A stretch of 64,000 bases of DNA from an uncultured Pseudomonadales bacterium (GCA_964509365.1 CAZDWN010000002.1:67701-131700); one strand, 5' to 3'. Shown: positions 30,996 through 53,597, counted from the stretch's first letter. Made by a program: numbers and translations. The notes: generated from the sequence alone by a model not told the origin.

Positions 30996-31057
30996 AGATT
31001 CATCATAGATGAATTTGCACAAAAGCAAAACAAGAAGACTGGTATTTTCGTCTTTAT

Positions 31058-34000: not shown

Positions 34001-37000
34001 GGTGGCGACAATATTTCTGGAACATTAACAGCATTTTCCGGAAAGTACATTAGTTTGTCTCCGGTAAGAACTCACGTTGGAAACACGACCATTACTGAGT
34101 CTGGAAATTTTTTGAGTTTGGCAAGAAACGATGTGCAGGTGACAGGAACAGGCACTATCGCAATTACAGGAGACATGGCACTTCTGACATCTACATGCAG
34201 TCAGAGTGGTGGTTCATGTACTGACTCCTCACATATTTTGAACTTGCAGCAAAACTATGCTGCGGCGAATGGAAACGTATTCGAGCTCACCAATGCTGGG
34301 ACTGGCAAAGGAGTCTCACTCACTTCTTCATCGACCGGTACATTGATGGAATTGGATTCCTCTGGAGCGGTGACGACGGCAAAAGGATTGGTTATCGCCG
34401 CGACCAATGGCGCTGGAGTAATCACGGATGCGCTCGATGTCAGTGATGCAGAGATCGTCAATGGTATCAATGTGGGAGCGAACAATATCTATTCTGTCGG
34501 AAATGTGAATTTTGCTGGGACAGCGACTGGTACATCAGCAACAGGAATTGTACTTCCAGTAAAAACAGATTCTGGCGATCCGACCGTCACGCAAGCAAAT
34601 GGAGAAATGTACTACAACAGCAATAGTGGCAAATTTAGATGCTACCAAGCATCTGCATGGACTGATTGTATCGGGAGTGGAAGTGGTATTACTGGGACTG
34701 GGACCGCTGGGACATTACCGATTTATACGGGTGCTGGTGCGACGATTGGTGATTCTTGGTTGTCCCAGGCCTCGACGACGTTGACTCTCAGTACTGCGAC
34801 CATCATCAGTGATGCTTCACTCGCCACGTTGACGACTTCGACAGCATTTAATCTCAATCCAAATACTGGTACCAGTTATACGCTTGATTCCACAGCCACG
34901 ACTCTCAATCTCTTCGGTACAGCGACTGCGCTGACGTTCGGAAATTCAGCGACGACACTTGCATTCGGTGCCTCTGGAGGCACGACCATAACGCCTGGCG
35001 GAACCTTGACTATCGCAGAAGCGGCAACAAAGGGCACTATTCTGACTTCTACACTTACTAGTGGAGCCAGAAGTACATCTGTCTTCAGTATTACGCAAGC
35101 CAATGATGGGACCAATGACTTCGACTCTAGCACCACTGGATTGGTAAACCTAGTCAACGATGACCTTGGTTCTGCCTCTGCAATCGTATGGATCGATCAA
35201 AATGGGACTTCAAGCAGTGGTGATGAATCTGGTATCCACATCTCTGCTCCAAATACTGGCTCAGCTACCGGTATGGAGATCAATGTCGGAGATAATGCAT
35301 CAAACAACTATTCCGGAGGTGGTGGTCTGATTATTGATGACGCGTATGAAATGACGTCAGGCTCAGGGATAAGAATTGGAACTAGTACAGGCATTGGCTC
35401 TGGTACGACTCAGACTTTCTCGGGTAATTACATGGATATCTCTACTGAACTCGGTGCAGGTACGTTCTCACAGAGCTCTGGCACCAGAACTGAAAGCGGT
35501 CACTATCTCAACGTAGGGAGAGCGTACACCACGAGTGGCACAGGTACAGTCACAATTACGGGTGATTTAGCTTCCTTGGCTGCCACCTATACCGAGACCG
35601 CCGGTACCATTACTGATACATCAAATATCCTTTCATTGGCTCAGAACTGTGATGCGACGTCTACGGATTGTACAGGTGCAGTAATTGATTTGACCAACTT
35701 CGGTACTGGTGCAGCGCTTGATCTGGCGCAAACGAATACATCAGGGACACAAACAAATGGAATCTTTTTCAATCGAAACGGTACGAGTGGCACGACGACA
35801 AATGGAATTAACATCACCAATACCGCCGGCACACTTACGTATGGATTGACTTTTACGGGTACGACCGCGATTGGTACAGACATCAAACTACAAGGTGGGG
35901 AAACCATTAGCAACTCTGTTGCTGATACCATAGTGCTCGCCTCTGATGCCACGAATGGTGCTGGCGTAGCGAGACTTCCAGTGAAGACGGATACTGGAGA
36001 CCCAACGCTTAACGTCGAGGGGAACATTTACTACAATACCTTCGACAATAAATTCCGATGCTATCAAAACGCTGCCTGGACCGACTGTATCGGCTCTGGT
36101 GGAGCGACTGCTTTTGATACGATCAGTGATCCGACTGGGACCGGTGCGATCGCGATGGGCAACAACGCTCAGACACTTGATTTCATCTCTCCCTCGACTG
36201 CGACCGCGATGGATGGTTTGACCGTCACGTATACGAATGGCTCCGCGACTGACGTGACCACTCAACGCGGTTTTGTCGTAGCGAATCTCAATGATGCAGC
36301 GTCTACGGGTACTCTGGAATCTTTGGCTGTGATCGAAAACCGCGATATCAATGAGACATTAGGCAATGCACTATTGATCGATCAAGCTGGCGCGGGTACG
36401 ACGACCAATGCCCTTAAGATCAGTAATTCTGGAGGAAATATCACGACGGGTATCGCCATCGTCGACGGTGCTGGCGGCACTCTGACGACGGGCATCTCAG
36501 TCACGGGTGCGATGACCACCGGATTGACGATAGGCAGTGGGTCGGACGCGATCACCAGCGGCATCGTCCTTGGATCGACGGGTATTTCGACAGATATCAC
36601 CTTACAAAATGGAGAGAAGATCGACAATGATACCGACGGATATATCCAGTTTTCCGTCGGATCAAACTCCGGTCTTGTGATCAATGATGGCGGTCAGTCA
36701 TTTGGATTGGCGACCGCTGCAAGTGATGGCGGCGTATTTGGAGGTGCCGCGTATTATGGATTCAAAGACGCAGCCAACTCAGTCCAGTACTTTCTCTTGA
36801 CGCAAGCCGCGACCGCGAATACGGGGACGACGAGTCAAGCTGCACTCACATTTGCGACTCCAGTGAATACGACGGGTACAAACGTAAACGAAGGACTTGC
36901 GATCGCGACGACGATCGGCAATGCGAGTGCCGGGGCGAACACCGCCAACATCATCTCGATCGCGGCGCTTACTGGCGATGACCAAGTGACACTTAACGGA

Positions 37001-39820
37001 ATCAGTATCGGGACGCTGACTCCGAGTGCGGGGACAGAGACTGCGATCAAGATCGCATCAGGCTGGGACAAAGATATCTCTGGCGCTTCCTGGAATATCA
37101 CCAGTGGAGGTGTCTTGACCGTCACTTCCTGCAGTGGCTGTGGCGGCGGAGGGAGCACTTTACAGCAGGCCTATGATGCAGATGCGGATGGATCCGATGC
37201 AATCATTCTGATGACGACGACCGACGGCTCAATCATTTTCCAAACAGTAGCTGGTACACAATTTAAAATTGCAGCGACGGTCGCTCCGACAGTAGACTTG
37301 CAAGCAATCACGAACACAGGCTTTGGGACGGTGACCGATGGCGTCAATGGTCTCTCGATCGCCTTTACGCAAGCCGACGATGCGGATGCGACTGACACCA
37401 ATGCCGGTGCGAAGATCACGTTAACGTCCTCATCTGGTGATGCGGATACTCTGGTCGGACTTGATGTAGCCAATATTACTGGTGGCGCTGCAACGGAGAA
37501 AGGGATTCGTATTGGCTCTGGATTCGACCAAGACCTTGAGTTTGTCGATACCACGCCGGTTATCCGAATTCCGGATGCAAGTAGTCTGACGATACAAGGC
37601 GGCCAAGGAAATACACTGGCACAGATGACAGAATATTTCTCAGGAGCGAATTACGGTACATTTGAAGCCGGTGGATTTATCAATATTGATGGAAGTTACT
37701 ATGAAGATCAATTTATGAGTGGAGCTACGACAGCTACTGCTGACGTCGCTTTGTACTCAATCCGCTATGGAGACAAGCACGACTGGGTCTTTGATGAAGC
37801 AGGTGTCGCTTCTATCGGGAATGGGAGTGCAGCTTCAAACTCCTATGGCTGTTCGGTCAACCAAAACTCTGTAGGGCTCGGAAACATCAATGGAATGGTT
37901 CAATTGACACCTGAATTGACTACAAGTACTGCTGGAGTACGTGGAGCGGATTGTCGACTCACGATTGGCTCACAGACAGGCGCGTCAACGATTGGCATTT
38001 TGAATGTGGCAAACAAATGGGTGATGTATTGGAAAGTGAAGCCGAGTTCAAACTGGACCAATGCAAAAAGTGCCAGAGCAATGTATTTCGGTGCCAACAA
38101 CTTCTCAATGGCTTGGGATGGGACTATTCCCTACGGTACATCCGCAAACCCAGCACAATCAGGCGCTGCAATCATGATGTATAACGGAGACGCCACAAAT
38201 AATAATGTGGGCTCAAATTGGCGAGGAATTGTGGTAAATGGAACGCTTGCGAATCAAACAGGTGTCCCATGTGGCGTGAGTGTCGTGACGACTGCATTTG
38301 CTCTTCTGAGGATTGAAGCTCGAGCGACTAACGAAGTTGGCTTCTTTGTTGATCCTGATATGTCCAATGGTATCAGTATGACAAATTGTGGCAATGCGAC
38401 CGTAAACGTCCCGTCTGTCAACTTGGCACCAGCTCTCAATGTCGGAAATTCTCTAGCGACAGGTCAAGTGGGTTGGGGGTCGTGGTCAGCTCAAGTGGAC
38501 TTGTTTGCCTATGTCCAGGACGACCCACGTGATTTTTCGACGCCGCAGTCTTTGGTTTCGAGTGAATCTAGTACGCCTTCGAATCCAATTCCACCAAATC
38601 CAATAACTGGTGCTGACTTAGCTGAACACTACTATTTTCATTCTGAACATGATTTTGGCGATATCGTCACGTTTGGGACTGCCCCAGGGACTGCAAGTCG
38701 TTCGGCAACTCCATATGATCGAAAGATTCTCGGAGTAGTCTCGCAATCTCCTGGGCTGACGATCGGAGAGGCTGATGAGACGAGCTCCCCAATCGCGCTC
38801 ACTGGTCGTGTCCCCACGAAGATCAATTCCAAAGGTGGCTCAATACACATAGGTGATCCGATTACGACTTCTGACATTGCCGGGTATGGTATGCGCGCGA
38901 AAGGACCGGGAAAGATCGTTGGCACAGCGATGGAAAATTTTGAGTGTGAACGCAGCTATTGCGAAGGTACGATCATGGTGAATGTGAATGTGGGATATTA
39001 TCTCGGTGATGAGGGAGATACTGCTCTCTTGGTGCAAAAAGAAGTCGCCTCTTTTGGAGCCACACTTTCACAATCTGAACTCACATCTTTGACTGCGTCA
39101 GCAAGTGGAGTACTCGGTGTCAGTTCAGAAGCGACTCAAGGGCTTATTGCAAAATTTATGGAGATGACGGGAGGATTGAGAGTTGCTTCGGCTTTTGAAA
39201 GTATCGGGACTGCCATTTTTCGAGGACCATCAGATTTCTTCTCTAAAGTGATGTTCAAGGATAAAGTGGGTTTTGAAAATCAAGTGACGTTTAACTCTGA
39301 TACAGCTGGAAATGCGGTCATAAAGTCAGGTGAGCGATTCGTCGATGTGACCTTCGATCACGAATATGATGTCGATCCAATTGTCAGCGCAAATCTCATT
39401 ATTGCTAGAGTCACACAGGAAAACATTCCAGAATATATTGAGAAGAAATTATGTGAGGCTGATGACACCATAGATGCTTGTCAAGATAAAGTCTCGAGCA
39501 GCACTTTGAGTGTCGATGTCCGCTACGCAGTAGTGAGTCGTTCAAAGCAAGGGTTTATGATCCTGCTCTCAAAAGAGACACCGGTAGACATGTTGTTTAG
39601 CTGGAGCGCTGTGACTGTCAAAGGTGCGAAGACGTCAGTGAGTCGCACCTCCGTAAGCAGCGGCTCTGCTCTCTTATCACCGATCTCTACCCAACATCCG
39701 AGCGCAAGTCCGCTCGTATCACCTCTGCCGATTTTGTCGCCGCTGCCGACTTCACTCCCTGTACTTGCGACACCTTCCGCTACAATAGCTCCTGTTGCGA
39801 CTTCTTCCGGTCAACTGTAA
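31058..39820 (+). CDS. giant (2,920 aa) cell-surface protein with four ~440-aa tandem internal repeats and a P/S/T-rich C-terminal tail
   Basis: Signal peptide/anchor (RRHIATLLLLTGVFFLWRPTAVFAATG). Uninterrupted 8.76 kb ORF, G/T/S/A-rich. Motif (S/T)GDP...(M/I)YYN..(N/G)KFRCYQ..(A/G)W(T/V)DC at aa ~289, 727, 1167 and 1650. Confidence 0.7.
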   Translation: MAYSHASNVATVEIVSNTFRRHIATLLLLTGVFFLWRPTAVFAATGTFKQINFQGKVVNKTTGTNVADGSYTFVFSLYTVSSAGSNIWTESKSVTVTNGIFQTFLGDTTSLPGSVDFNTDNLYLGINFNGDGEMSPRVRFTAVPQAMNALKVAGLTVTDTTGTLTIPNGTTIAFSGTNNLTFTTTGSTGLTLPTTGTLATLAGSEVLTNKTIGSTGLVFSGASTDIDTAAAEGLVLQGRAASSFNTTSGAISFQAAGSGTISTVQIGAGGAGSTTPDYLALDVKSDTGDPAGGAEGYIYYNTFDNKFRCYQNSGWTDCVGSGVTGTGTAGTLPIYTGAGATIGDSWLSQASTTLTLSTATIISDASLATLTSSTALSLNPNTGTSYTLDSTATTLSLFGTATALTFGNSASTLAVGASGGLTVTPGGDMTFSEAHNKGFTISGTTATNRTTDLMTITQASGAGTGTGNLLQLINNDTDSTAALLDINQGTAGGTGINFPLGISTGNAINIFSTITTGNAIAIPAIATVTSGSAINLSGGVTGAVAAMTGSYISVSPTRSKTSGATLISDTGHFLSLVRSNSNTIAGGTLDMQGDVAVISSTCSQSAGTCSDSSHILSLAQSYTAATGNVFDVTNAGTGKGLFLTSSSTGNLMELDSSGAVTTPKGIVIAATNGAGVITDALDVSDAEIVNGINLGANNIYSVGNVNFAGTATGTSATGIVLPVKTDSGDPTVTQANGEMYYNSNSGKFRCYQASAWVDCINTSSGITGTGTAGTLPIYTGAGATIGDSWLSQASTTLTLSTATAISDSVLATLTSSTALSLNPNTGTSYTLDSTATTLNLFGTATALTFGNSASTLAVGASGGLTVTPGGNLTIAEAATKGTTFTSDLTSAGRTTDVVTISQANDATNNSTGNLLQLTNSDTSSTTALLDLNQTAPAGGMINIPAGMSTGTAINFGMGITTGKIMQVIAASVTSGNVLGSSGGDNISGTLTAFSGKYISLSPVRTHVGNTTITESGNFLSLARNDVQVTGTGTIAITGDMALLTSTCSQSGGSCTDSSHILNLQQNYAAANGNVFELTNAGTGKGVSLTSSSTGTLMELDSSGAVTTAKGLVIAATNGAGVITDALDVSDAEIVNGINVGANNIYSVGNVNFAGTATGTSATGIVLPVKTDSGDPTVTQANGEMYYNSNSGKFRCYQASAWTDCIGSGSGITGTGTAGTLPIYTGAGATIGDSWLSQASTTLTLSTATIISDASLATLTTSTAFNLNPNTGTSYTLDSTATTLNLFGTATALTFGNSATTLAFGASGGTTITPGGTLTIAEAATKGTILTSTLTSGARSTSVFSITQANDGTNDFDSSTTGLVNLVNDDLGSASAIVWIDQNGTSSSGDESGIHISAPNTGSATGMEINVGDNASNNYSGGGGLIIDDAYEMTSGSGIRIGTSTGIGSGTTQTFSGNYMDISTELGAGTFSQSSGTRTESGHYLNVGRAYTTSGTGTVTITGDLASLAATYTETAGTITDTSNILSLAQNCDATSTDCTGAVIDLTNFGTGAALDLAQTNTSGTQTNGIFFNRNGTSGTTTNGINITNTAGTLTYGLTFTGTTAIGTDIKLQGGETISNSVADTIVLASDATNGAGVARLPVKTDTGDPTLNVEGNIYYNTFDNKFRCYQNAAWTDCIGSGGATAFDTISDPTGTGAIAMGNNAQTLDFISPSTATAMDGLTVTYTNGSATDVTTQRGFVVANLNDAASTGTLESLAVIENRDINETLGNALLIDQAGAGTTTNALKISNSGGNITTGIAIVDGAGGTLTTGISVTGAMTTGLTIGSGSDAITSGIVLGSTGISTDITLQNGEKIDNDTDGYIQFSVGSNSGLVINDGGQSFGLATAASDGGVFGGAAYYGFKDAANSVQYFLLTQAATANTGTTSQAALTFATPVNTTGTNVNEGLAIATTIGNASAGANTANIISIAALTGDDQVTLNGISIGTLTPSAGTETAIKIASGWDKDISGASWNITSGGVLTVTSCSGCGGGGSTLQQAYDADADGSDAIILMTTTDGSIIFQTVAGTQFKIAATVAPTVDLQAITNTGFGTVTDGVNGLSIAFTQADDADATDTNAGAKITLTSSSGDADTLVGLDVANITGGAATEKGIRIGSGFDQDLEFVDTTPVIRIPDASSLTIQGGQGNTLAQMTEYFSGANYGTFEAGGFINIDGSYYEDQFMSGATTATADVALYSIRYGDKHDWVFDEAGVASIGNGSAASNSYGCSVNQNSVGLGNINGMVQLTPELTTSTAGVRGADCRLTIGSQTGASTIGILNVANKWVMYWKVKPSSNWTNAKSARAMYFGANNFSMAWDGTIPYGTSANPAQSGAAIMMYNGDATNNNVGSNWRGIVVNGTLANQTGVPCGVSVVTTAFALLRIEARATNEVGFFVDPDMSNGISMTNCGNATVNVPSVNLAPALNVGNSLATGQVGWGSWSAQVDLFAYVQDDPRDFSTPQSLVSSESSTPSNPIPPNPITGADLAEHYYFHSEHDFGDIVTFGTAPGTASRSATPYDRKILGVVSQSPGLTIGEADETSSPIALTGRVPTKINSKGGSIHIGDPITTSDIAGYGMRAKGPGKIVGTAMENFECERSYCEGTIMVNVNVGYYLGDEGDTALLVQKEVASFGATLSQSELTSLTASASGVLGVSSEATQGLIAKFMEMTGGLRVASAFESIGTAIFRGPSDFFSKVMFKDKVGFENQVTFNSDTAGNAVIKSGERFVDVTFDHEYDVDPIVSANLIIARVTQENIPEYIEKKLCEADDTIDACQDKVSSSTLSVDVRYAVVSRSKQGFMILLSKETPVDMLFSWSAVTVKGAKTSVSRTSVSSGSALLSPISTQHPSASPLVSPLPILSPLPTSLPVLATPSATIAPVATSSGQL
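31915..36110 (+). repeat. approximately 1.3 kb tandem intragenic repeats (3 full copies plus a partial fourth) within the giant gene
   Basis: Motif copies at nt ~31922, 33236, 34556 and 36005 (spacing 1314, 1320, 1449). About 75-80% nucleotide identity overall, but 33150-33300 vs 34485-34635 are ~95-97% identical. Confidence 0.75.
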
Positions 39821-39836: not shown

Positions 39837-41612
39837 TTAATGGAGTTCTTGCAGCTTGTTGAGATTTTGTTTGGCGCTCTCTAATGAAGGGTTAATCTGG
39901 AGGGCTTTTTCAAAAGCCTGGCGTGCTAGTGAGTATTCTCCCGACAGGGCGTAGACAGCACCAATGTTGTTGAGGATTGATGTGTCACTCGGCGCAATTT
40001 GTAATGCGCCCGTATAGGCTCGCAGTGCCAACTCATATTTTCCCAATTGCCTATAGGCGTTGGCGAGAATGATCAGGCGCTCGAACTCATTCACAGGATG
40101 TTCAGTTGAGCGCAATAGGAGCTCAACCGCTTTCGCATGATCGCCTTTTGAGTCATACAGTAATCCCAATGTTGTTCGAATTTCTGGGTAATCTGGGTTG
40201 GTTTTGTATGCTTGTTGGTACTGATATAACCCAGCGTCCATTCTGTTTTGCGATAGATAATAATTTCCCAAATAAATCCTTGCCAAAACCGCGTTCGGAT
40301 TGACAGCCACAGTCCTAGTCCACAGCGTCACGTCATCTTTCCAATCCAAATTACGCTGAGAACTTAGAACCGAGTATGCCAAGACAATGCAGATGAGTGC
40401 TATCCAGGCAAATTGCTGTTTTGAAGACTTGAGTGGTCCACTGGTTAGTGGGAGTACTTGAGTAAACAGTGTGGTTATGAGCAGAAGAAATCCATACGAG
40501 GGGACATACGCAAATCGTTCGACCATAATTGCTTCAGTTGGAATGATATTTAGAGTAGTCAAGAAACTTACAAAGAACCATAGGATAGCAAACGAGAGAA
40601 TTGGGTTTTTCTTGCGGAATGTGATCGCCACACAGAGTGAAAAAAAGATGATAGTGATCGCGGCAATACTTTCTAATTGAAAGAGAGAGAGTGAGTACAT
40701 GACTTGTTTAGTAGAAAGGCTAGCGCGCTCCATTTCGACGACCCAGGATGAAATCCCAGATCCCAGACTGTGGTTTATGGTCAAACCGAGAGGAATGAGT
40801 AGCACGTGTAGATAGCGCAAAAATGCTTTGAGCATGACAAAAAATTGGACTGAGGGATGACCCAATAAGAATCCAGCGCGAGCACCTGCATGAGCGAGGA
40901 AAGTACGCATTGCAAGATATACAACCAAAACGATTGCGAAGGGTATGTTTCTTCCGAATCGCTTCCAGATTGATTGACCAGGATAGAGAAAATAAATATC
41001 GACCAAAAAAAGCAAACCGGGAAGTGTCAGAGTCACTTCATTGGTGCCAAACGCCAAAAATGCGAACAAGATGGCTCCACAAGCTAGAGCTATTCGATAT
41101 CGAGGATCTTCACTCAGTCGAATGTAAAGATACACCGAGAGAAACATAAACACGATCCCAAACATATCCATGCTTGACGTGATCCACGTGACTGCTTCTA
41201 CATGAATGGGATGGAGCGCAAACAGGAGTGCGACTACAAATGGAAAATACGCATCTTTGGTCAATCGTCTGGTTATCAAATAGACCAAAATCGATGTACT
41301 CATCTCGATGCCAATGCTTTGCAGGTGATATCCAAAAGGATTTTTCCCCCAAATCTTATCGTCGATGATGTAGAGAATGTTACGTACGGGACGATAATTG
41401 CCTCCATGCGTGGGTGGCGTTTCGCCTAGAATGAAACGTGGAATACTGCTCCACTCTTGCTTCGCTTCCCAATTGATCACCGTATCCTTATCATCCCAGG
41501 CAAATCCATTTCCGAAGATATTAGCGTAGGTAAGCAGTACACTGATGATGATTACGAAGACTTGAAGATCTTTACGCTTCAGCTTATGGAGGAGGTACGA
41601 AATATAGTTCAT
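39837..41612 (-). CDS. TMTC-like GT-C glycosyltransferase: N-terminal multi-TM domain with FAWDD motif plus C-terminal TPR repeats
   Basis: ANIFGNGFAWDDKDTVINW after TM1 (TMTC/DUF1736-type F-x-W/F-DD loop-1 motif). About 11 TM helices. About 5 TPR repeats at the C-terminus (YYLSQNRMDAGLYQYQQAYKTNP...). 591 aa. Confidence 0.5.
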   Translation of the reverse strand: MNYISYLLHKLKRKDLQVFVIIISVLLTYANIFGNGFAWDDKDTVINWEAKQEWSSIPRFILGETPPTHGGNYRPVRNILYIIDDKIWGKNPFGYHLQSIGIEMSTSILVYLITRRLTKDAYFPFVVALLFALHPIHVEAVTWITSSMDMFGIVFMFLSVYLYIRLSEDPRYRIALACGAILFAFLAFGTNEVTLTLPGLLFLVDIYFLYPGQSIWKRFGRNIPFAIVLVVYLAMRTFLAHAGARAGFLLGHPSVQFFVMLKAFLRYLHVLLIPLGLTINHSLGSGISSWVVEMERASLSTKQVMYSLSLFQLESIAAITIIFFSLCVAITFRKKNPILSFAILWFFVSFLTTLNIIPTEAIMVERFAYVPSYGFLLLITTLFTQVLPLTSGPLKSSKQQFAWIALICIVLAYSVLSSQRNLDWKDDVTLWTRTVAVNPNAVLARIYLGNYYLSQNRMDAGLYQYQQAYKTNPDYPEIRTTLGLLYDSKGDHAKAVELLLRSTEHPVNEFERLIILANAYRQLGKYELALRAYTGALQIAPSDTSILNNIGAVYALSGEYSLARQAFEKALQINPSLESAKQNLNKLQELH

Positions 41613-43285
41613 TATGTGCGTCTATGAAGTTCTTTCAGTTCTAGCCCAGCATATTTCGGATTGTCGCCTTTCGGATAAGAATCGAAGGTGAATCGCTTGA
41701 GAATTTCTTGGCATTTCTCAGGATAGATGTCACAAGTATGAGTTTCAAACATGAAGACAGGTTTCCCTTTGCTCAGATAATCGTCGACAAAATCCATGAC
41801 ATGGACATCTGTCATAAAGTTATCGGTATAAATTGCCGTTTTCCCATGGAGATGGATTGGCGCTAATACTCCAAAAATGAATGCACTGTCGGGCGGCGTT
41901 TGAGGAATCATCACATCTTCAATGTATGCGTGCAAAGTTCGTGGACCGACTTCTACTAAAGAATCCCAGGGTGATGTAGTAATGAGTCTTCGATACGAAG
42001 TAATCGTGGGGACGATGCTGAGAAGCAACACTCCTGCTCCGATCAGCATCCAATTTCGAGTTTGAAATGATGCTTTTCGAAACGACTGATTCAGGTCCCT
42101 GAGCGCAATGCTTGCGAAGATAGTAAGCGGGACACTCTCCATGAGAAAAAATCGTCCGTAGGAACCCGAAAAAGTATATGAGTAAAACTGACCTGCATAA
42201 TAAAATGAATAGATAAAAAAGAAACCACACATCCAGTAGACAAATATGAGAAGACGAAAATCTCGACTTCTCCTCGTCCAGCGTATCGAAAATAGCGTCA
42301 GAGATGCAAGGATGGTGATTGCTAGAGGAAACTCTGGTCGATTCACAAAAGTTAACACATTCGGAAGAGTGTTTCGCATAACATAACTTGTCGTAAATAT
42401 CTCTAATGGCGTCGCTTCGGCGCAGCACCAAATGCTTGAAAATACAGGCACCGAGACGAGTGCTCTGATGAGAACGACAGGGACAAGCAGTGCAAGCACC
42501 AGTCGATCCATGCCAACAAACAGTTTTTGCTTGCGATAATGCCTCATACTTAGTGCGGCAATTCCAAGCGCCGGCAACATGAGGAAGCTCTCGAATCGAA
42601 CCATAAGCAGTAGAAAAACAGAAAGCCAAACGAACGCTGCATCGAATAGTGATTGTTTTCTAGAGTAGAGGATGACTGCAAGTAGTGAAAGCAGCGAGAA
42701 CGTGACAAAGTACACATCAATATTTGTACTCACTGACCAATAGACTGTCAGAGGTGCAAATGCGAAAATACTGGATGAAAATAGTGCAGTAAGTTGATCA
42801 TCAAAAAGTTCTAGGACAACAATAAAAAGTAGTAGTATCTGTACCGTACTCGCGAGCTTTGCGAATCGAAACAAATTGAGTTCATCAAAGCCAAAGAGTT
42901 TTAAGACCCATGCATTGATAACGGGTACCGTGATACGAGCAGCAGGGTCCGGATCGCCTAAAAGTATTTGAGATTCAGTGGAAAGTAATAAGCTGACTGC
43001 TTGCCCATGTCGTGCGAAATTGATGGAATACGATAAGTATCTATCCTCATCAAAATAGACTCTATGCCCATTTGGTACCCATGCAAATCGAATGAGTCCA
43101 CCTAGAATGCAGATACTTACCAATCCAAGTGATACTCCTCGATGCATGGACTTCACTCGTTTCAGGAGTAATGGGAAGTACGATGCACACACGCCAAGTA
43201 GCAGCAAGAGCATGACGCTGACAGACCAAGGTGCGATAACAGCTATCAAATATCGAGTTGCTAGAAGTAAGTATGCGCTAATCAT
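41612..43285 (-). CDS. PMT/GT39-like GT-C membrane glycosyltransferase
   Basis: Loop-1 motif VYFDEDRYLSYSINFARHG resembles the protein-O-mannosyltransferase DE motif (VFDEVHFGGFASQYI). At least 11 TM helices. 557 aa. Start overlaps the downstream stop. Confidence 0.45.
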   Translation of the reverse strand: MISAYLLLATRYLIAVIAPWSVSVMLLLLLGVCASYFPLLLKRVKSMHRGVSLGLVSICILGGLIRFAWVPNGHRVYFDEDRYLSYSINFARHGQAVSLLLSTESQILLGDPDPAARITVPVINAWVLKLFGFDELNLFRFAKLASTVQILLLFIVVLELFDDQLTALFSSSIFAFAPLTVYWSVSTNIDVYFVTFSLLSLLAVILYSRKQSLFDAAFVWLSVFLLLMVRFESFLMLPALGIAALSMRHYRKQKLFVGMDRLVLALLVPVVLIRALVSVPVFSSIWCCAEATPLEIFTTSYVMRNTLPNVLTFVNRPEFPLAITILASLTLFSIRWTRRSRDFRLLIFVYWMCGFFFIYSFYYAGQFYSYTFSGSYGRFFLMESVPLTIFASIALRDLNQSFRKASFQTRNWMLIGAGVLLLSIVPTITSYRRLITTSPWDSLVEVGPRTLHAYIEDVMIPQTPPDSAFIFGVLAPIHLHGKTAIYTDNFMTDVHVMDFVDDYLSKGKPVFMFETHTCDIYPEKCQEILKRFTFDSYPKGDNPKYAGLELKELHRRT

Positions 43286-45294
43286 TTTGAATCCAATTCT
43301 ATAGTGAACTTTTTAGCCAACTGTGTCGCTCGCTCGCGTTCCTCCTCAGGCAAAGGATATGACATGTAGCGTTCTAGGTAGTGCTTCGCTTTCGACATGT
43401 CGTGGAAGCAGGCTGCATAGAGGATAGCGATGTCTAAGACAGTTTTGCTCACATTTTGTTCTCCACGGATAGACAGTGCGGTCAAGAAATAGTGTTCAGA
43501 CGCTTCGCAGTCACCTTGAGCTGCTTTGATTCGCCCCATCTCCGTATTGAGGGGGAAATTCCACTGGGATTCTGGGATCTTTTTTAACGTGCTCTCAGCT
43601 GCACGAAGTTGACCATCAAATCGATACAAGGATGAAAGCTGACCCAATGCCAGAATATTTTGAGGATACCTGCTGGTGAAATTTTCCATCTCTGTAATCG
43701 CGTCTTTGATTCGAGTTGGATCGAATCCCAAATTTCGGCTTAAATCCACGAAATTGAGTTTTTTATGGGCGAGCGTATTGGGGTCGACTTGTGAGCTTCG
43801 CAGAAATAGGATTCCATCATAATCGATATAAAATAGAGCCCAATCTGACTTCTTTCCAAAATAAGTAGTGACGTAATCGTTCTCCTTGCTCGTAAGAATT
43901 GCGTTGATCTCATTATCATCTACAAATTCACGGATATTTTCATCGGAAATAGTTGAAAGCCTTCCATAAGCTCCTATCGTGTCATTTGAATCAAAAAAAT
44001 CATCTCGAGCATCAATCTGTTGTTTCTGCGGAAACAGACAATAATAGATATAGCCTGTAATTTCAGTTGAGACGAGGATATTTGGAGGAACTTTATTTTC
44101 TTTTAGAATCTTGCATTGTTCGCTCGGTGGCGCAAAGCGAGTCTGCCTCGGCGGAAACGCCGCCCAGACGCACATGACTAGTATGGCAGAAAATAATGAC
44201 AATACGGGCCAAATTTTCCGTTGTCGAAAATGCTTTGGGAGGCTCTTAATTAACGAGTCGATTGTAACGCCAAACAACGGTAAGGTGACGAATACTGCAA
44301 GCGGGATGAAGCGCACGAAAAAGAAACCGAACCATAAAAAAATACCAGTTGGGATGAGAGGATATATTTTCGTCAAGAATTTTTGCTTTGTTCGAATGAG
44401 TAAAAACGTAAATGAGATGACAGTGACGAGACCGTAGAGCAAAAAAAGAATGTAGTACGCTGGTGAAACATCAGACTTGAAAATACTCGTGTTCGTGACC
44501 TCGAGAGCCCCGGCGAGTGTGCTGTACCACTTCGCATTTCCTAACAGCGCATAGCCGGTGAGACCGTAGAGATACAGCCGAAAGCCGTATGGGTTGATGA
44601 GTGTAGCCAACAATGTGATTGTACCGAGTAGCGGAGCTATCCATGAAGTCGTCGTTGGAAATAGTCTAGCCATCAGCACCTGTCGAAATGTAAATGCGGT
44701 GACGAGCAAGGCGAACAGCAGAATATATCCGCCTGAAACGTTAGCAAAGAGGATGCCTACAAAAGGAAGAAGATAGAGCAATTTGGATCGGTGTAGTCTC
44801 CATTCCTCGAAGAGGACTTCAACAGATAGTAGGAGGATCAACGAAGCGATCAATGGATGCATTTTCCAAAAACTTAAAAGTAGTAGCGCGCCAATTGTTG
44901 TCGACACTGTTTCTGAACAACGAGAGATATGGTGAAGAGAGAATAGATGCTGCAGCAGGACAAAAGCTCCTATAGTAATCGGAATCAGCACTAGGAGTGG
45001 ACCGAATGTCTCACTAGGTCGAAACGACATATACGCGAGGACATCAAATAACCAGCTATGGCTTATCCATTCGAGCGAAGGGGCTGCTTCCTTATAGGAG
45101 ATATCAGTTTGACCAGGAATACTGTGCCTGGAGAGTATGTACCTGCCAATGCCAAAATGGAGGTATGAATCTGGCACGAGCAGGTTTCCCATTCCAATTA
45201 CAACAACGAAAATGATACTGAAAACCAAGAACAAGCGAAAAGTAGCATTATTGCTGATAGGTTGAGACATAGGTAAACACCAATTTGGAGACAT
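43282..45294 (-). CDS. multi-TM membrane protein with C-terminal TPR repeats (GT-C-like, family unclear)
   Basis: About 12 TM helices then TPR-like repeats (LGQLSSLYRFDGQLRAAESTLKKIPE...). 670 aa. 4-nt overlap with the downstream gene. Confidence 0.4.
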   Translation of the reverse strand: MSPNWCLPMSQPISNNATFRLFLVFSIIFVVVIGMGNLLVPDSYLHFGIGRYILSRHSIPGQTDISYKEAAPSLEWISHSWLFDVLAYMSFRPSETFGPLLVLIPITIGAFVLLQHLFSLHHISRCSETVSTTIGALLLLSFWKMHPLIASLILLLSVEVLFEEWRLHRSKLLYLLPFVGILFANVSGGYILLFALLVTAFTFRQVLMARLFPTTTSWIAPLLGTITLLATLINPYGFRLYLYGLTGYALLGNAKWYSTLAGALEVTNTSIFKSDVSPAYYILFLLYGLVTVISFTFLLIRTKQKFLTKIYPLIPTGIFLWFGFFFVRFIPLAVFVTLPLFGVTIDSLIKSLPKHFRQRKIWPVLSLFSAILVMCVWAAFPPRQTRFAPPSEQCKILKENKVPPNILVSTEITGYIYYCLFPQKQQIDARDDFFDSNDTIGAYGRLSTISDENIREFVDDNEINAILTSKENDYVTTYFGKKSDWALFYIDYDGILFLRSSQVDPNTLAHKKLNFVDLSRNLGFDPTRIKDAITEMENFTSRYPQNILALGQLSSLYRFDGQLRAAESTLKKIPESQWNFPLNTEMGRIKAAQGDCEASEHYFLTALSIRGEQNVSKTVLDIAILYAACFHDMSKAKHYLERYMSYPLPEEERERATQLAKKFTIELDSK

Positions 45295-46186
45295 CGGTCA
45301 TGTGTTTTCGTGCGTTATCCTCAGTGTCTCTATCCATCAGACAGAGAATGTAGGGGCGTTTCGGATAGTACACGATCCCGCAGTCAGTGAAAACAGATTT
45401 TTGAGGATTTCCTTGGTCATACACTCCTATCTTGTGAGCAACTGGTATTTCTTTGGGAATTGGAGCGGCAAGTTTGTCATTAAATGGTGACTTCGTCATA
45501 ATCGATAAAATTTCATCGGAGCTCGATTTATCTAAGTAGGATGAGAGATATAAACTTCGCAAGATCGAAGAATAATTCTTCGGTGAAACTACTGGGAGAA
45601 CACCATCAAGTTCCTTGGGGATGTCCAGATAGTCAAAGACATCTTCGAGTGCGCCGTCTGGGAGGTGAGAATAGATGATGCTTTTAGCCGTATTATCAGA
45701 ATTTATCAGTGTAAGATCGATTGCTTCATGCAAAGTTATTTTTGCACCGGCCCCTCTTTTATACAGGTCACCGAAATGAGAGTCGAGATCGGATTTTTCT
45801 ATTGTGAGAACATCATCTTTATTCCAAGTTCCATTTTCGATTTGACGGTACACAGCCATGACCATAGGAGTCTTGAGTAAACTTGCTAAAAAGTAATTTT
45901 GCTTTTCATTTACACCGGCTGACACGCCTGAAGGTAAATATTCGAAATACAGTCCAAAACCAGGCAAGCTGGAAGCATAGTCTTTCAAATCTTTCCTCAG
46001 TAGAACAAAGTTCAAAATAATATCATTTTTATTTTCAATAAAGATTCGAGGTGAAAGGAAAGAATACGTCATTGCCGGAGGGACGTACTCTGATTCCTGT
46101 GATGGAGAACTAGTCAACACAAAAAAGAGAAGGATTATGTTTACCACTAGACTAGTGCTCAAAATAATTATGAGGATTTTTCGCAT
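45248..46186 (-). CDS. class A beta-lactamase-related serine hydrolase, membrane-anchored
   Basis: SxxK (ASLLKTP), SDN (LINSDNTAK) and KxG-like (HKIGVYD) motifs. Start at MRKILIIILSTSLVV (46186). The longer ORF would overlap the divergent GT2 gene. Confidence 0.5.
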   Translation of the reverse strand: MRKILIIILSTSLVVNIILLFFVLTSSPSQESEYVPPAMTYSFLSPRIFIENKNDIILNFVLLRKDLKDYASSLPGFGLYFEYLPSGVSAGVNEKQNYFLASLLKTPMVMAVYRQIENGTWNKDDVLTIEKSDLDSHFGDLYKRGAGAKITLHEAIDLTLINSDNTAKSIIYSHLPDGALEDVFDYLDIPKELDGVLPVVSPKNYSSILRSLYLSSYLDKSSSDEILSIMTKSPFNDKLAAPIPKEIPVAHKIGVYDQGNPQKSVFTDCGIVYYPKRPYILCLMDRDTEDNARKHMTDVSKLVFTYVSTYQQ

Positions 46187-46219
46187 ATTCCTATGAACTT
46201 CATATTGTATACTTGAGCT

Positions 46220-46984
46220 TTGAAAATGAAAAAGCTCCCTACCGTCTCGATCATCGTACCAGCTCGTGATGAAGCTGGAAATATAGAATCGCTCATCAAA
46301 CGCATCCCTATCCTCGGCGGTCACACGGAACTGGTCTTTGTCGAAGGCTTTTCACAGGACGGGACTTGGGAGATGATCCAACGGGTGAAAAAATCAACCA
46401 AGCTAAAAGGTCTGTCTGTTGTCGCATTCAAGCAAGAAAAGCGCAGAGGCAAAGAAGCGGCCACTCGGCTCGGCTTTGACAAAGCGGCTGGAGCTGTCCT
46501 GATGATCTTGGATGCAGATCTTTCCGTCGAACCGGAGCGTCTCAAACTATTTTATGACGCATTGATACAAACTCCTCATCGGTTTGTGAATGGATCGAGA
46601 TTTATCCATCCCCAAGAGCCATTGGCGATGCGATACTTAAATAATATTGGAAACATTGCCTTTGCGCGTATTTTCAGTCTCATCCTGGGCATGCGAGTGA
46701 CTGATACGCTCTGTGGGACAAAAGTGCTCTGGCGCAAAGATTGGAAAAGATTGAAAGCGGCCGTGGCTCCGTTCGCGCGTCATGATCCGTATGGGGACTT
46801 TGAACTCTTCCTGGGAGCTCATGTGCTTGGTCTCCAGATAGTCGAAGTGCCCGTGGTGTACAAAGCGCGTACATATGGACAGACAAAAATCTCCCGCTTT
46901 CGCGATGGTTTACGTCTGCTCGCGGTACTTGGTTCCTTTTTATTATTTTTAACCCGTCGCCGCCTCTCTTCCCTTTCCCTTTGA
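46220..46984 (+). CDS. GT2-family glycosyltransferase, polyprenol-phosphate mannose/glucose synthase-like
   Basis: VSIIVPARDEAGNIESLI and DxD-type motif VLMILDADLS. Dpm1/Ppm1-like architecture with a C-terminal TM. 254 aa. Confidence 0.7.
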   Translation: MKMKKLPTVSIIVPARDEAGNIESLIKRIPILGGHTELVFVEGFSQDGTWEMIQRVKKSTKLKGLSVVAFKQEKRRGKEAATRLGFDKAAGAVLMILDADLSVEPERLKLFYDALIQTPHRFVNGSRFIHPQEPLAMRYLNNIGNIAFARIFSLILGMRVTDTLCGTKVLWRKDWKRLKAAVAPFARHDPYGDFELFLGAHVLGLQIVEVPVVYKARTYGQTKISRFRDGLRLLAVLGSFLLFLTRRRLSSLSL

Positions 46985-47070
46985 CCTTTCCCCCTTTCCC
47001 TTGCCTCTTTACCCTTCCCCTTTCGCGCTTCTCCCTTACCTCTTTACCCTTTCCCTTTCTCTCTTCTTAT
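46961..47070. repeat. polypyrimidine (CCCTTT-like) low-complexity tract, ~110 bp
   Basis: ...cctctcttccctttccctttgacctttccccctttcccttgcctctttacccttcccctttcgcgcttctcccttacctctttaccctttccctttctctcttctt. Plus strand has almost no purines. Overlaps the GT2 stop and the annotated start of the next ORF. Confidence 0.7.
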
Positions 47071-49283
47071 GTTGTACACTTAATTCTACCGTGTATCTCC
47101 GTCCTTATTGCCGACTCTATCTCGTCTCTATTTGTTTGATAAGTTGCTTCTTCGTTTTTCCTCAGTCGGTCTTTGCGGATACGAGTTGCAGTGCATCGAT
47201 ATCAGTGAGTTCAATTTTTGTGAGTCAGTCACTGTCTCTGACACTACGTGTTGAGAACACTGGGACTAGTCCGCTAGTTTTGGCATATTTATACAAACCC
47301 GGACCAGGGTATGTTCTATCAGGCGCATCAAGTAGCGGATGGGATGCGACTTTGTCGGATGAATCCCGCCTTTCACTTCAAAATGGGTCGATCGCGCCGG
47401 GAGAATCACAAGACTTTTCGATCCAGATCACTGCGGATGCAGAACCAGTAGACCTTGCTTCACTGAATGTCCAAGCCACAGAATTACCTGACGGCAATGG
47501 CTTAATTGATTGTGGCACTCCGACGTTTGCAGTTGTCCAAACCACCGCACCTGTGATATCCAGTATCACGATTTCTGACGTCACTGACTCATCTGCAAAA
47601 ATCAGTTGGGTCACAGATAAAGCCTCAACTGGTGCACTAATGTATGGCACGACAAGTACATATGGGTTGACCAGGTCTGAGAGTGGCACAGGCACCACAC
47701 ACAGTCTCGTGGTCGACGGACTGTCAGCAAACACGACGTATCACGCGAAACTTTCAGGGACTGATAGTGATGGGTTTACTGGGGAAACCGCTGACTTTAT
47801 CTTCGCGACGGCAGCTCCTGGTCTGACGATCACCAATACCGTGACCGTGACGGCGACGACCACCAAGACAGTGACCGTCACAGCACCAGTGGCGACACCG
47901 ATTCCTGACAAGACTCCTCCAAAGATAGTGATCGACACGAAATTTGAGAAGGTCTACGAAAGTGCGCCTGATATTTCTGGGAAAGTAACTGATGCAGGTG
48001 GTCTTGCAATGATTGAGTACTCGATCGACGCTGGCAAAAATTGGTTGCCCATTGAGCAGTCCTTTCTCTCAGGATCAAAATCCGTTGCCTTCTCTTTCTC
48101 ACCGCAAATGGAGATGGACGGTAATTATCAGATGATGTTGCGCTCAAAAGATGTGGCGGGAAATACCAAGAAGACGCCAGTCGTCCCGCTCGTCATCGAT
48201 CGACTCCCTCCTAGACTGGGAGGCTTCGTCTATTCAATTGGGTCTTTCCCACTCGAGCCAGATGGTGATGGGACCATCGCTTCGATTGACGGAGTCCCGC
48301 TCCAGCTTTCATTTGCCGCGGTCGGTGGGCCGACCAACATAGATCTCAAGATTGGCGATAGTGCAGTCCCTCTCCAATACGATCTCGAGAGAAGTTTGTG
48401 GACTGGCAGTTATACGCCAAGAATCACAGGAGATCTGCAAGTCCAGTATGCAGCAGTGGATGGTGCTGGAAATGCGGTGAACGGAAACGTTGAACCCGTA
48501 CACGTCAATGAGCCAGGGACGGTAGAGACGACAGCCTGCCGTTCCAAGGACGCGACTATTTCCGTCTTTGCTTACGATCCTCTCCTTGGGAACTACTCGC
48601 TGTGGAATGCCTCGCAATATGGCGAGCAAAACCCACAGGTGACGGATGATCAACGTCAATATGCGTTTGTCTTACCTTCGGGAAAGTACTATCTGCGTGT
48701 ACAAGCCACTGGGTGCACGACACAAGAGACTGATATCTTCACGGTGAAGAGTCGCGAATTTATCTTCCAAGACTTTGTCTTGCGACCAACGGCCAAGCTT
48801 CAGATTGGTTCTTGGACACTTCCGATGCCTTCATTTTTCACGACACTTATCCCTCACCACTCACAGAAACAACCGCAAGAAAAGAGTACTGATCAATATG
48901 TAGGATCAGCTTTTCCTGATCTTGACGACGTATCGTTCGATGTTGCGACCCTTCGTGGGAAAGCCAGTGTCGTCACAGTCTTGTCGACATGGGTTCCTCA
49001 GACATCTTCGCAAATGCAAGCTTTGGTGCGGGCATCCACTGCTCGGAGGATGAACAGCTTGGTCATTATGGAAGAAGAAAGCGCTTCGAGCGTGAAGGTA
49101 TTCGCCAAGCAAGGAGCATATACCAATCAAGTCATCGCCGATCCTGATGGAATCCTGCTCGCCCCGCTCTCCGTGCACTCCTATCCAACGCATTTTTTCC
49201 TGGACCGTCGAGGCATCATTCGCCGAGTCTATCGAGGATTTTTGAATGATGAGCAAATTGATGAGTACCTTACTGATGAGTAG
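47001..49283 (+). CDS. secreted multidomain protein: Fn3-like domain(s) plus C-terminal thioredoxin-like (TlpA/redoxin-like) domain lacking the CxxC motif
   Basis: ITISDVTDSSAKISWVTDKASTGALMYGTTSTYGL...TTYHAKLSGTDSDG is Fn3-like. C-terminal KASVVTVLSTWVPQTSSQMQAL has a redoxin scaffold with WVPQT in place of WCxxC. The annotated 5' end runs through the polypyrimidine tract, so the true start is probably downstream (signal-like LVSICLISCFFVFPQSVFA, non-ATG start?). Confidence 0.45.
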   Translation: MPLYPSPFALLPYLFTLSLSLFLCCTLNSTVYLRPYCRLYLVSICLISCFFVFPQSVFADTSCSASISVSSIFVSQSLSLTLRVENTGTSPLVLAYLYKPGPGYVLSGASSSGWDATLSDESRLSLQNGSIAPGESQDFSIQITADAEPVDLASLNVQATELPDGNGLIDCGTPTFAVVQTTAPVISSITISDVTDSSAKISWVTDKASTGALMYGTTSTYGLTRSESGTGTTHSLVVDGLSANTTYHAKLSGTDSDGFTGETADFIFATAAPGLTITNTVTVTATTTKTVTVTAPVATPIPDKTPPKIVIDTKFEKVYESAPDISGKVTDAGGLAMIEYSIDAGKNWLPIEQSFLSGSKSVAFSFSPQMEMDGNYQMMLRSKDVAGNTKKTPVVPLVIDRLPPRLGGFVYSIGSFPLEPDGDGTIASIDGVPLQLSFAAVGGPTNIDLKIGDSAVPLQYDLERSLWTGSYTPRITGDLQVQYAAVDGAGNAVNGNVEPVHVNEPGTVETTACRSKDATISVFAYDPLLGNYSLWNASQYGEQNPQVTDDQRQYAFVLPSGKYYLRVQATGCTTQETDIFTVKSREFIFQDFVLRPTAKLQIGSWTLPMPSFFTTLIPHHSQKQPQEKSTDQYVGSAFPDLDDVSFDVATLRGKASVVTVLSTWVPQTSSQMQALVRASTARRMNSLVIMEEESASSVKVFAKQGAYTNQVIADPDGILLAPLSVHSYPTHFFLDRRGIIRRVYRGFLNDEQIDEYLTDE

Positions 49284-52435: not shown

Positions 52436-53173
52436 ATGGAAACTTCAGAAAAAAAACCACGATTTTTGGCCAAGAAACTCGGTAAGGGAGTCCTCGCGCT
52501 TGTAGTCGTCTTGGCTGTCTTGGTGCTTGGTGGTGTACTCACCGTCGTCGCATACAAAGTAAAGCCTTCATTATTTGCACGTTGGATCGGTGCGCCATCG
52601 CAAAATGCTGCAGCCCAAAAAGATGCTCAAAATCTCGTTGATGAGGTCGGCAAGTACATCGATCTGCCTGGTGATGAGACTCCGACGATCGCAACCGTTT
52701 CTGATGCTGAAAAGCTCAAGGGCCAAGCGTTCTTCGCGAAAGCTCAAAATGGCGATAAGGTCATGTTCTATACCAAGGCAAAAAAAGCATTTTTGTATCG
52801 ACCAAGTACCAAGAAGATTATTGATGTCGCCCCGCTTTCCGTCGGTCAAAATCCGACCGATACCGCGTCTGGAAGTGCGACACCACAAGCCACGCCTGCA
52901 CCAGCGAAAGTATCTTTACTCAATGGATCGGCGGTCACAGGTCTGACCACGACTGCAGAGCGCAAACTAAAAACTGTCGCTGGTATCGTCGTGAGTGGCA
53001 AGGGCAATGCCAAGAGTACGACTTATACCAAGACCACGGTCATCAATGTGAAAAATGTCAAAGCTGATTTGGTCGCGAAAGTCGCTACCGCTGTCGGTGG
53101 GACGGTCGACTCGCTCCCTGCGGGTGAGACCGCTCCAGTCGATGCTGATATCGTGGTGATCCTCGCTCCGTAA
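52436..53173 (+). CDS. membrane-anchored protein with a LytR_C (LytR/CpsA/Psr C-terminal) domain
   Basis: N-terminal TM. C-terminal LLNGSAVTGLTTTAERKLKTVAGIVVSGKGNA...VATAVGGTVDSLP...DADIVVIL fits the LytR_C pattern. Confidence 0.45.
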   Translation: METSEKKPRFLAKKLGKGVLALVVVLAVLVLGGVLTVVAYKVKPSLFARWIGAPSQNAAAQKDAQNLVDEVGKYIDLPGDETPTIATVSDAEKLKGQAFFAKAQNGDKVMFYTKAKKAFLYRPSTKKIIDVAPLSVGQNPTDTASGSATPQATPAPAKVSLLNGSAVTGLTTTAERKLKTVAGIVVSGKGNAKSTTYTKTTVINVKNVKADLVAKVATAVGGTVDSLPAGETAPVDADIVVILAP

Positions 53174-53174: not shown

Positions 53175-53597
53175 CTACTTCAGACTGACGAGAATTGCGC
53201 CGAAGACGACGAATACGATCCCCACCATGCTTCTGGGTGTGATTTTCTCACCCAAAAAAAGCACAGACATGATGGCGATGAAGACGAGGCTGGTGCGATC
53301 AATGACGCTCACTTTTGCGGTCTCACCTGCTTTGAGGGCGGCGAAATAAAAGATCAGTGAGGCTGCTCCTGCGACTGCTGACAAGACGATGTATGCAATC
53401 TCTTTCCCCGATAAATTCGCGATGACCGTAGTGTCAAATTTCTTAAGCCCTATCGTCACTCCGATCATCAGCACTGCCATGATGATCGTGCGCAGTGTGG
53501 TGACCAGAGTCGAATCGACATCTTTGACTCCCATCTTTGCAAAGATCGTGACGAGTGCCGCGGTGAATGATGAGAGGATTGCTAAAGTGAGCCACAT
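53175..53597 (-). CDS. EamA-like (DMT superfamily) 4-TM small transporter
   Basis: 140 aa, four TM helices, EamA-type half-domain sequence (AKMGVKDVDST...VLFLGEKITPRSMVGIVFVVFGAILV). Confidence 0.55.
   Translation of the reverse strand: MWLTLAILSSFTAALVTIFAKMGVKDVDSTLVTTLRTIIMAVLMIGVTIGLKKFDTTVIANLSGKEIAYIVLSAVAGAASLIFYFAALKAGETAKVSVIDRTSLVFIAIMSVLFLGEKITPRSMVGIVFVVFGAILVSLK

Follow-up and report, generated by a model that had tools for sequence, protein, structure and literature searches.

Background

The transfer of sugars from lipid-linked donors to proteins by membrane glycosyltransferases of the GT-C fold is already known as a kind of system. In Streptococcus mutans, the Pgf cluster gathers in one locus the GT-A enzyme PgfS, the epimerase PgfE, the GT-C enzymes PgfM1 and PgfM2 and the adhesins Cnm, CnaB and CbpA (PMC11092751), while in Caldicellulosiruptor bescii the gene of a GT39 enzyme (Cbes_1864) is located close to celA, the gene of its substrate (PMC6151902). 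Other described systems include the streptococcal GtrB/PgtC2, the actinobacterial Pmt/Ppm1, the metazoan TMTC1-4 and DPY19, and the PglB, STT3 and AglB enzymes. Here, we describe a cluster of five genes found at positions 39837-46984 of a 64,000-nucleotide stretch of bacterial DNA (GCA_964509365.1, CAZDWN010000002.1:67701-131700; this whole stretch is hereafter the window). It comprises four minus-strand genes, transcribed in the order D, C, B, A, and one plus-strand gene, GT2, and it adjoins the gene of a giant Ser/Thr-rich secreted protein. We consider it highly probable that this module is a lipid-linked-donor glycosylation system and we favour, with more reserve, the giant protein as its principal acceptor.

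Like the Pgf and GtrB/PgtC2 systems, the module combines a predicted lipid-phosphate sugar synthase with more than one GT-C enzyme, and transfer would likewise take place outside the membrane. As in the Pgf locus, a Ser/Thr-rich surface protein (here a proposed substrate) is encoded in the same locus and an epimerase is associated (here in relatives). By contrast, the Pgf GT-C enzymes belong to the YfhO family and lack tetratricopeptide repeats (TPRs), whereas those of the module are TMTC-like (A), of the PMT_2 type (B) and from a TPR-bearing family without curated model (C). Moreover, no beta-lactamase-fold partner such as D is known for Pgf, and the present module belongs to a candidate-phyla lineage. 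Literature searches retrieved no description of such a cluster or of GT-C protein glycosylation in candidate phyla. What is new here is the combination of these three types of GT-C enzyme, their obligatory beta-lactamase-fold partner and the candidate-phyla setting beside a giant protein.

Candidate-phyla bacteria are mostly uncultured epibionts, and their contact with the host is attributed to giant proteins of their surface. A conserved glycosylation cluster beside such a protein provides a concrete handle on how the candidate-phyla surface is built. The cluster also extends to bacteria the kin of the TMTC enzymes of animals, for which catalysis is still mostly inferred.

Results and discussion

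Organization and conservation of the module

D, C, B and A are read as an operon on the basis of their neighbouring starts and stops, which overlap or abut (Table 1). The start of B and the stop of C have an ATGA in common, implying translational coupling, and the start codon of A overlaps the stop of B by one base. GT2 diverges from D across a gap of ~35-40 bp, and the giant gene converges on A, with 16 bp between the two stop codons. A preliminary description of the locus, made from the sequence without database searches, had reported three consecutive polytopic membrane open reading frames (ORFs), which we confirmed (12, 12 and 10 hydrophobic segments in A, B and C by hydropathy scan), and had overlooked the fourth operon gene, D, between C and GT2. 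It had also placed the module downstream of the giant gene: the two are indeed neighbours, but they are convergent and so do not belong to the same transcript. The lower GC content that it had noticed was verified, the module genes having a GC of 0.40-0.44 while most neighbours lie at ~0.49-0.55. Since GC at third codon positions (GC3) is lower as well (0.40-0.46), amino-acid composition alone does not account for this difference; a few other genes of the window are equally low in GC3, and the low GC is not taken as a sign of horizontal transfer.

The arrangement of GT2 diverging from D-C-B-A is kept in about seven lineages recovered from metagenomes or metagenome-assembled genomes (MAGs), with 35-62% protein identity to the window. 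Counted as independent were L001 (a Logan assembly), L002/L003 (L002/L005 and the near-identical L003, Candidatus Gottesmanbacteria, 1.2-Mb contig), L006 (Candidatus Levyibacteriota), L007 (a JGI metagenome), L008 (with L009, an NCBI MAG), L010/L011 (ENA) and L012/L013 (Logan); one further short contig carries D-C only. These relationships place the source of the window among the candidate-phyla bacteria of the Microgenomates group. Wherever a related locus extends beyond the start of C, D is the gene directly before it, with the exception of L008, where an opposite-strand gene encoding SAM-methyltransferase (S-adenosylmethionine-dependent) domains fused to the GT2 orthologue is inserted between D and C. 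An orthologous giant gene, encoding 1328 to more than 3100 amino acids (aa), is adjacent and convergent in all five lineages whose contigs reach far enough (L001, L002, L006, L008 and L010/L011), a synteny whose absence would, according to the preliminary description, have refuted its reading. For instance, the C-terminal ~900 aa of the L001, L002, L006 and L008 giants are 42-56% identical to the giant of the window.

Around this core, the gene content varies. A C-methyltransferase-type gene, not found in the window, stands between A and the giant gene in most relatives, L007 and L010 carry a second A paralogue, an NAD-epimerase gene lies beside GT2 in four lineages, and a carbamoyltransferase gene is found further out in L002. 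In L006, a separate Methyltransf_11 (SAM methyltransferase) gene heads the operon and GT2, D, C and B are kept, but the stop of B is directly followed by the convergent giant gene and A is missing, indicating that A is dispensable in at least one lineage. The persistence of the core gene set through this neighbourhood turnover argues for functional coupling. Furthermore, fusions observed in relatives, including that of a Dpm1-like GT2 domain to D in L001, tie D and GT2 into one pathway.

Three predicted GT-C glycosyltransferases

The GT-C nature of the three membrane proteins, anticipated in the preliminary description, is borne out for B by a PMT_2 match, for A through family links and for C by its predicted fold, and profile searches assigned module proteins to glycosyltransferase families (PMT_2, GT2) rather than to generic families of uncharacterized function. 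In all three, acidic residues of the first external loop are conserved (D40/D41 in A, D79-E80-D81 in B, D42 in C). Their position outside the membrane, predicted for A, B and C alike as the check called for in the preliminary description required, relies on hydropathy and the positive-inside rule, a crude method.

B matches the Pfam PMT_2 model (PF13231) over residues 123-272 with 41.8 bits, above the curated cut-off of 26.1, and this is its sole match even at E <= 10. The FDEDRY motif initially recognized in its first loop (residues 78-83) was found in all seven orthologues, with D79, E80, D81, R82 and Y83 invariant, as are the stretches YFDEDRYL, WCCAEATPLE and FSGSYGRFF and a C-terminal C518/C525 pair. 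The protein has ~12 transmembrane helices, with an extra N-terminal helix, and the K/R-rich loop 30-50 lies inside, which places the FDEDRY loop, a Cys-rich loop and the C-terminal domain outside. Sequence searches against solved structures returned nothing for B as a single sequence (no Pmt1, Pmt2 or Pmt4) and only noise at E > 0.4 for its profile. Like the actinobacterial Pmt and the C. bescii GT39 enzyme, which has almost the same size (556 against 557 aa), B displays a DE-type loop-1 motif and is paired with a polyprenyl-phosphate sugar synthase, here a probable one. Unlike them, it matches PMT_2 and not the classical PMT model (PF02366), it lacks the MIR domain, and it is encoded in an operon with two more GT-C enzymes and D.

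The membrane domain of C has no match in Pfam or NCBIfam, and ten distant relatives showed TPR matches only. A word-indexed search with C retrieved only five close relatives, while an exhaustive HMMER search returned 8,417 representative clusters at E <= 1e-3, including 2,539 at E <= 1e-10. In an alignment of 112 sequences drawn from this representative search, G50 is invariant, while conservation reaches 90% or more at D42, H46, P60, W81, P147, N185, R328 and D428. The first external loop of the family carries the motif D-x-W-x-H-L-x2-G ... I-P-x2-D ... W-x2-H-x-W-L, and many members bear long TPR arrays. The AlphaFold2 model built from these 112 sequences reached a predicted local distance difference test score (pLDDT) of 92.7 and a predicted template modelling score of 0.92, whereas a model from only five sequences had a pLDDT of 56 and an unusable membrane domain. 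It comprises ~11-13 membrane helices, followed by an alpha/beta domain (~391-511) and a TPR-like domain (~526-662). D42 lies 4-5 residues past the first transmembrane helix, in a loop placed outside by both the model and the K/R distribution.

A Foldseek search with this model gave PglB, DPY19, AftA, Emb and AftD as best solved matches. Scores of the structural neighbours were 18.1 for PglB (408 residues aligned), 17.1 for Pmt4, 16.2 for STT3B, 16.1 for ALG12, 15.5 for Pmt2, 15.4 for ArnT, 15.0 for DPY19 and 14.5 for AglB. These top neighbours are all lipid-donor GT-C enzymes, and most of them (PglB, Pmt4, STT3B, Pmt2 and DPY19) glycosylate proteins. Compared with PDB sequences, C produced only noise at E > 0.1 as a single sequence, and its profile matched TPRs only; likewise, hhalign found nothing between B and C and a 61% probability between A and C. 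It is thus by fold, and not by sequence, that C can be related to A and B. On the strength of the model, C is a GT-C-fold enzyme from a family without Pfam or NCBIfam coverage, and it points to some 8,400 clusters that are GT-C by predicted fold yet invisible to both collections. Like PglB, STT3, AglB and DPY19, C has the GT-C fold, an extracytoplasmic domain at its C-terminus and a long first external loop that opens on a conserved Asp, but it has only 7-13% sequence identity to them and its C-terminal domain is TPR-like. In addition, unlike for PglB, STT3 and AglB, no genes for the assembly of a lipid-diphosphate oligosaccharide are found near the module, and N-x-S/T sequons are under-represented in the giant protein.

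A has ~11 transmembrane helices (residues 1-418) followed by an extracytoplasmic domain (~440-590) with strong Pfam matches to TPRs. Its membrane domain has no Pfam match even at E <= 10, DUF1736 (PF08409) included, and its profile matched nothing among PDB sequences. A search with this domain retrieved 307 relatives at E <= 1e-5, nearly all combining it with TPRs. Among 25 trimmed membrane domains of the family, five match PMT_2 and one matches TMTC_DUF1736 (PF08409), and hhalign gave a 94.6% probability between the A family and the profile of the B orthologues. D40, P75, H134 and P135 are invariant in the 25-sequence alignment, D41 is at least 90% conserved, and an invariant HPxHxE stretch (H134, P135, E139) also resembles TMTC enzymes. 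Hydropathy and the positive-inside rule give an 11-helix topology with the N-terminus inside, in which the short K/R-rich inside loops hold 4, 3, 2, 3, 3 and 2 K/R, while the TPRs are placed outside together with the DD, HPxHxE, NE and ERxxY loops. This agrees with the published TMTC topology if helix 257-273 is the non-spanning helix of loop 4.

Seven motifs define the TMTC enzymes according to Eisenhaber et al. (PMC7801869), and in A, M1 and M7 are complete while M2 to M4 are partial. M1 (DD) corresponds to D40 and D41, within the FAWDD sequence at residues 37-41, and M7 (ERxxY) to ERFAY. Only the YRP of M2 (SHKSYRP) is present, at residues 73-75, M3 (RxD) reads SMD and M4 (KE(T/Q)xxT) reads NEVTLT, although the wider A family keeps RxD and SKE, respectively, while M5 (DW) is replaced by SW in A and its close orthologues. 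A thus resembles TMTC1-4 by its ~11 helices followed by non-cytoplasmic TPRs, its DD in loop 1, its YRP, its ERxxY in loop 5 and the RxD and KE of its family consensus. It differs from them by failing the DUF1736 model, by SW in place of DW, by the N that replaces the K of M4 in A and close orthologues, and by its donor lipid, which would be a bacterial polyprenol. The preliminary assignment to a TMTC/DUF1736 type with FAWDD motif and TPRs consequently holds for the motif and the repeats, and not for the DUF1736 model or the DW motif. Judged by these motifs and profiles, A is TMTC-like and not a demonstrated TMTC member, since it lacks the match to this model and this motif.

The substitutions of A at M3, M4 and M5 would suit another explanation, in which the membrane proteins have lost transferase activity and act through their TPRs as scaffolds or chaperones in the export or assembly of the giant fibre, and GT2 belongs to an unrelated pathway. 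We regard this as very improbable: the loop-1 acidic residues and further polar residues of the kind found in GT-C active sites are invariant across orthologues and thousands of distant relatives, and GT2, which is found fused to partner domains, keeps its divergent position beside the operon in almost every relative, save for L008.

GT2 and the beta-lactamase-fold partner

GT2 contains a cytoplasmic GT-A domain (69.8 bits against PF00535) with a DAD motif (LDADLS) and a C-terminal hydrophobic tail. Among solved structures, the Pyrococcus Dol-P-Man synthase DPMS (5mlz, E 2.4e-11), ArnC and GtrB come closest to it, in line with the Dpm1/Ppm1-like enzyme initially proposed. Its best NCBIfam matches stay far below their cut-offs, with 75.5 bits for AglJ (cut-off 325) and 44.8 for the Dol-P-hexose transferase (cut-off 375), and no equivalog thus designates its sugar. 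Orthologues with 47-65% identity hold the same divergent position, and GT2 is a probable polyprenyl-phosphate sugar synthase from these sequence relationships.

The longest ORF call for D (358 aa) overlaps GT2; its start was set at Met47 of this ORF from an alignment of orthologues and from an identical called gene of 312 aa in a public collection. D crosses the membrane once and exposes on the outside a Beta-lactamase2 domain (PF13354, 119.8 bits, E 1.4e-34), in which the SxxK/SDN/KxG triad is intact: ASLLK (SxxK), SDNT and HKIG, a variant of the third motif, are invariant in seven orthologues. The closest proteins of solved structure are the class-A-like 6v4w and Tll2115. D scored 69.3 bits against the NCBIfam bla_class_A equivalog, under the cut-off of 200, and is therefore considered a fold relative and not a resistance enzyme. 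The unvarying association of D with the predicted glycosylation genes, together with an occasional GT2 fusion, may reveal a new accessory activity.

The giant protein and the proposed pathway

The giant protein starts with an N-terminal signal or anchor and consists of 25.9% Ser+Thr. All six giants examined, including that of the window, end with a Ser/Thr/Pro-rich tail (27-56% S+T+P in the last 110 residues), and the four whose N-terminus is present have a common N-terminal signal and first domain. The giant of the window contains four repeats of ~440 aa (at residues ~307, 748, 1193 and 1666), each ending with G-x-(I/M)-Y-Y-N-x4-5-K-F-R-C-Y-Q-x3-W-x-D-C, which holds a Cys pair (FRCYQ...DC); the L002 and L010 orthologues bear collagen-like G-x-x runs instead. 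Its sole Pfam match is a weak one, to the phage tail-fibre adhesin Gp38_N. N-glycosylation of this protein is disfavoured, as it contains fewer N-x-S/T sequons (35) than shuffled sequences (47.6 +/- 6.1), with D/E-x-N-x-S/T at chance level.

In the glycosylation pathway that we propose, GT2, by family resemblance, would use a nucleotide sugar to charge polyprenyl phosphate with a single sugar at the cytoplasmic face, and the lipid-sugar would then be flipped across the membrane. Outside, C, B and A, as their fold and motifs suggest, would transfer the sugar to acceptors, most plausibly held by the extracytoplasmic TPR domains of A and C. Conserved synteny designates the Ser/Thr/Pro-rich tail and the Thr-rich repeats of the giant as the most likely acceptor. 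The existence of three GT-C enzymes might reflect distinct acceptor contexts, in the manner of POMT, TMTC and TMEM260 in animals (PMC11292533), or the addition of further sugars to the first, and D, as an integral and co-translated member of the operon, might act in processing, anchoring or de-acylation. Nothing specific indicates mannose, the sugar named in the preliminary description; the relatives carry NAD-epimerase, C-/SAM-methyltransferase and carbamoyltransferase genes, and the epimerase and methyltransferases point to a modified hexose or hexosamine. The minimal enzyme set that this description had also announced leaves the flippase out of account, and none is present in the cluster.

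Several observations weigh against this pathway or its acceptor. No GtrA-type flippase was found in the operon, in the related loci or among the small hydrophobic ORFs of the window, and the sole flippase candidate is an EamA protein located ~6 kb away and not conserved near the module. The giant gene converges on the module and is not co-transcribed with it. A shows K->N in M4 and R->S in M3, motifs that contact phosphate and sugar in TMTC, it lacks DW, and it is absent from the Levyibacteriota locus. All syntenic genomes come from one superphylum, so that part of the synteny could be inheritance. Finally, D and the recurrent LytR_C-domain neighbours hint at a connection with the cell wall.

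This last point would also fit the main rival reading, a module that modifies a cell-envelope polymer in the three-component style of CsbB/GtcA/YfhO or GtrABC, beside a giant gene that is there incidentally. GT2 and GT-C enzymes together have exactly the enzyme logic of such systems (reviewed in PMC8035078 and PMC11127046), ArnT, AftA, Emb and AftD are also among the structural neighbours of C, and the fold of D is of the penicillin-binding/beta-lactamase kind, its triad being intact. However, TPRs on two of the three GT-C enzymes suit the binding of a polypeptide better, the enzymes structurally closest to C modify proteins, the orthologous giant with its Ser/Thr/Pro tail stays adjacent despite gene gains and losses, and no polymerase, initiating phosphotransferase or TagF-like gene was seen in the neighbourhood of the window. 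We infer a protein acceptor and consider an envelope polymer unlikely.

Among protein acceptors, the giant might be one of many. In a general O-glycosylation of secreted Ser/Thr-rich proteins, the three GT-C enzymes would split the proteome by domain type, similarly to the split of acceptors between POMT, TMTC and TMEM260 in animals, a domain-specific division of labour known for O-mannosylation (PMC11292533). The window encodes several more Ser/Thr-rich ORFs (25-27%) without Pfam match, and the streptococcal GtrB/PgtC2 targets many Ser/Thr-rich disordered regions. Against this stands the close and lasting proximity of the module to a single orthologous giant, which suggests a dedicated relation, and we find a general system slightly less credible still than the modification of an envelope polymer. 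A dedicated module with the giant protein as principal acceptor is the reading that we somewhat prefer.

More speculatively, the C family might represent a further branch of protein-directed lipid-donor glycosyltransferases beside PMT, TMTC, TMEM260 and DPY19. In Microgenomates, it would form an obligate four-protein machine with A, B and D, in which D, a hydrolase drawn from cell-wall chemistry, would process or anchor the glycosylated giant fibre. This extension is offered only tentatively; if true, it would constitute a glycosylation-and-attachment system of a composition undescribed in any organism.

Other features of the window and of the related loci

Table 1 Coordinates of the module genes and of the other features discussed (aa, amino acids)
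Sequence	Feature	Position	Strand	Remarks
Window	A, TMTC-like GT-C membrane protein with TPRs	39837-41612	-	591 aa; final gene of the operon
Window	B, PMT_2-type GT-C glycosyltransferase	41612-43285	-	557 aa; PF13231 match
Window	C, predicted GT-C-fold glycosyltransferase	43282-45294	-	670 aa; AlphaFold2 model and Foldseek
Window	D, membrane-anchored Beta-lactamase2-fold serine hydrolase-like protein	45248-46186	-	312 aa; first gene of the operon
Window	GT2, predicted polyprenyl-phosphate sugar synthase	46220-46984	+	PF00535; start probably ATG at 46226
Window	Giant secreted protein	31058-39820	+	2920 aa; start codon uncertain by ~20 codons
Window	CarboxypepD_reg-domain membrane protein	28254-31079	-	941 aa
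Window	Thioredoxin-fold exported protein	47001-49283	+	760 aa
Window	LytR_C-domain protein (weak match)	52436-53173	+	
Window	EamA protein	53175-53597	-	140 aa; single EamA domain
Window	Ser/Thr-rich ORF	20505-21593	+	~360 aa; no Pfam match
Window	Ser/Thr-rich ORF	21635-22735	+	~360 aa; no Pfam match
Window	Ser/Thr-rich ORF	26478-27581	+	~360 aa; no Pfam match
Window	PAP2-family phosphatase	11338-11973	-	
Window	Lit lipoprotein intramolecular transacylase homologue	62932-63648	+	
L001	Dpm1-like GT2 domain fused to D	4573-6285		
L006	B stop followed directly by convergent giant gene	7560-15412		Giant of 2063 aa; A missing
L006	Methyltransf_11 gene	3874-4617		Heads the operon
L006	LytR_C-domain protein (weak match)	23-1481		
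L008	SAM-methyltransferase domains fused to GT2	4913-6328		
L010	LytR_C-domain protein (weak match)	6546-7244		
L012	LytR_C-domain protein (weak match)	2171-2908		

The TTG start of the giant ORF overlaps by 22 bp the start of the divergent 941-aa ORF, so that one of these ORFs has probably been called from a start too far upstream. This neighbour, of which L001 has a 32%-identical counterpart at the same position, may belong to the assembly or anchoring apparatus of the giant. On the other side of the module, the 760-aa exported protein combines Ig-like/fn3 repeats with a C-terminal AhpC/TSA-type thioredoxin-fold domain (DsbE/ResA-like); it adjoins GT2 in L001, L007, L010 and L012 as well, and a possible role for it is the oxidation of the conserved Cys pairs carried by the giant repeats.

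The weakly matching LytR_C-domain proteins (232-245 aa) lie within a few kb of the module. The EamA protein resembles, by its size and family, the lipid-sugar flippase subunits ArnE/ArnF. The three Ser/Thr-rich ORFs of ~360 aa may encode other proteins that are exposed at the surface and glycosylated. Two additional genes, for which the analysis drew no link to the module, encode envelope-lipid enzymes: the Lit homologue and the PAP2-family phosphatase, possibly one that acts on polyprenyl diphosphate.

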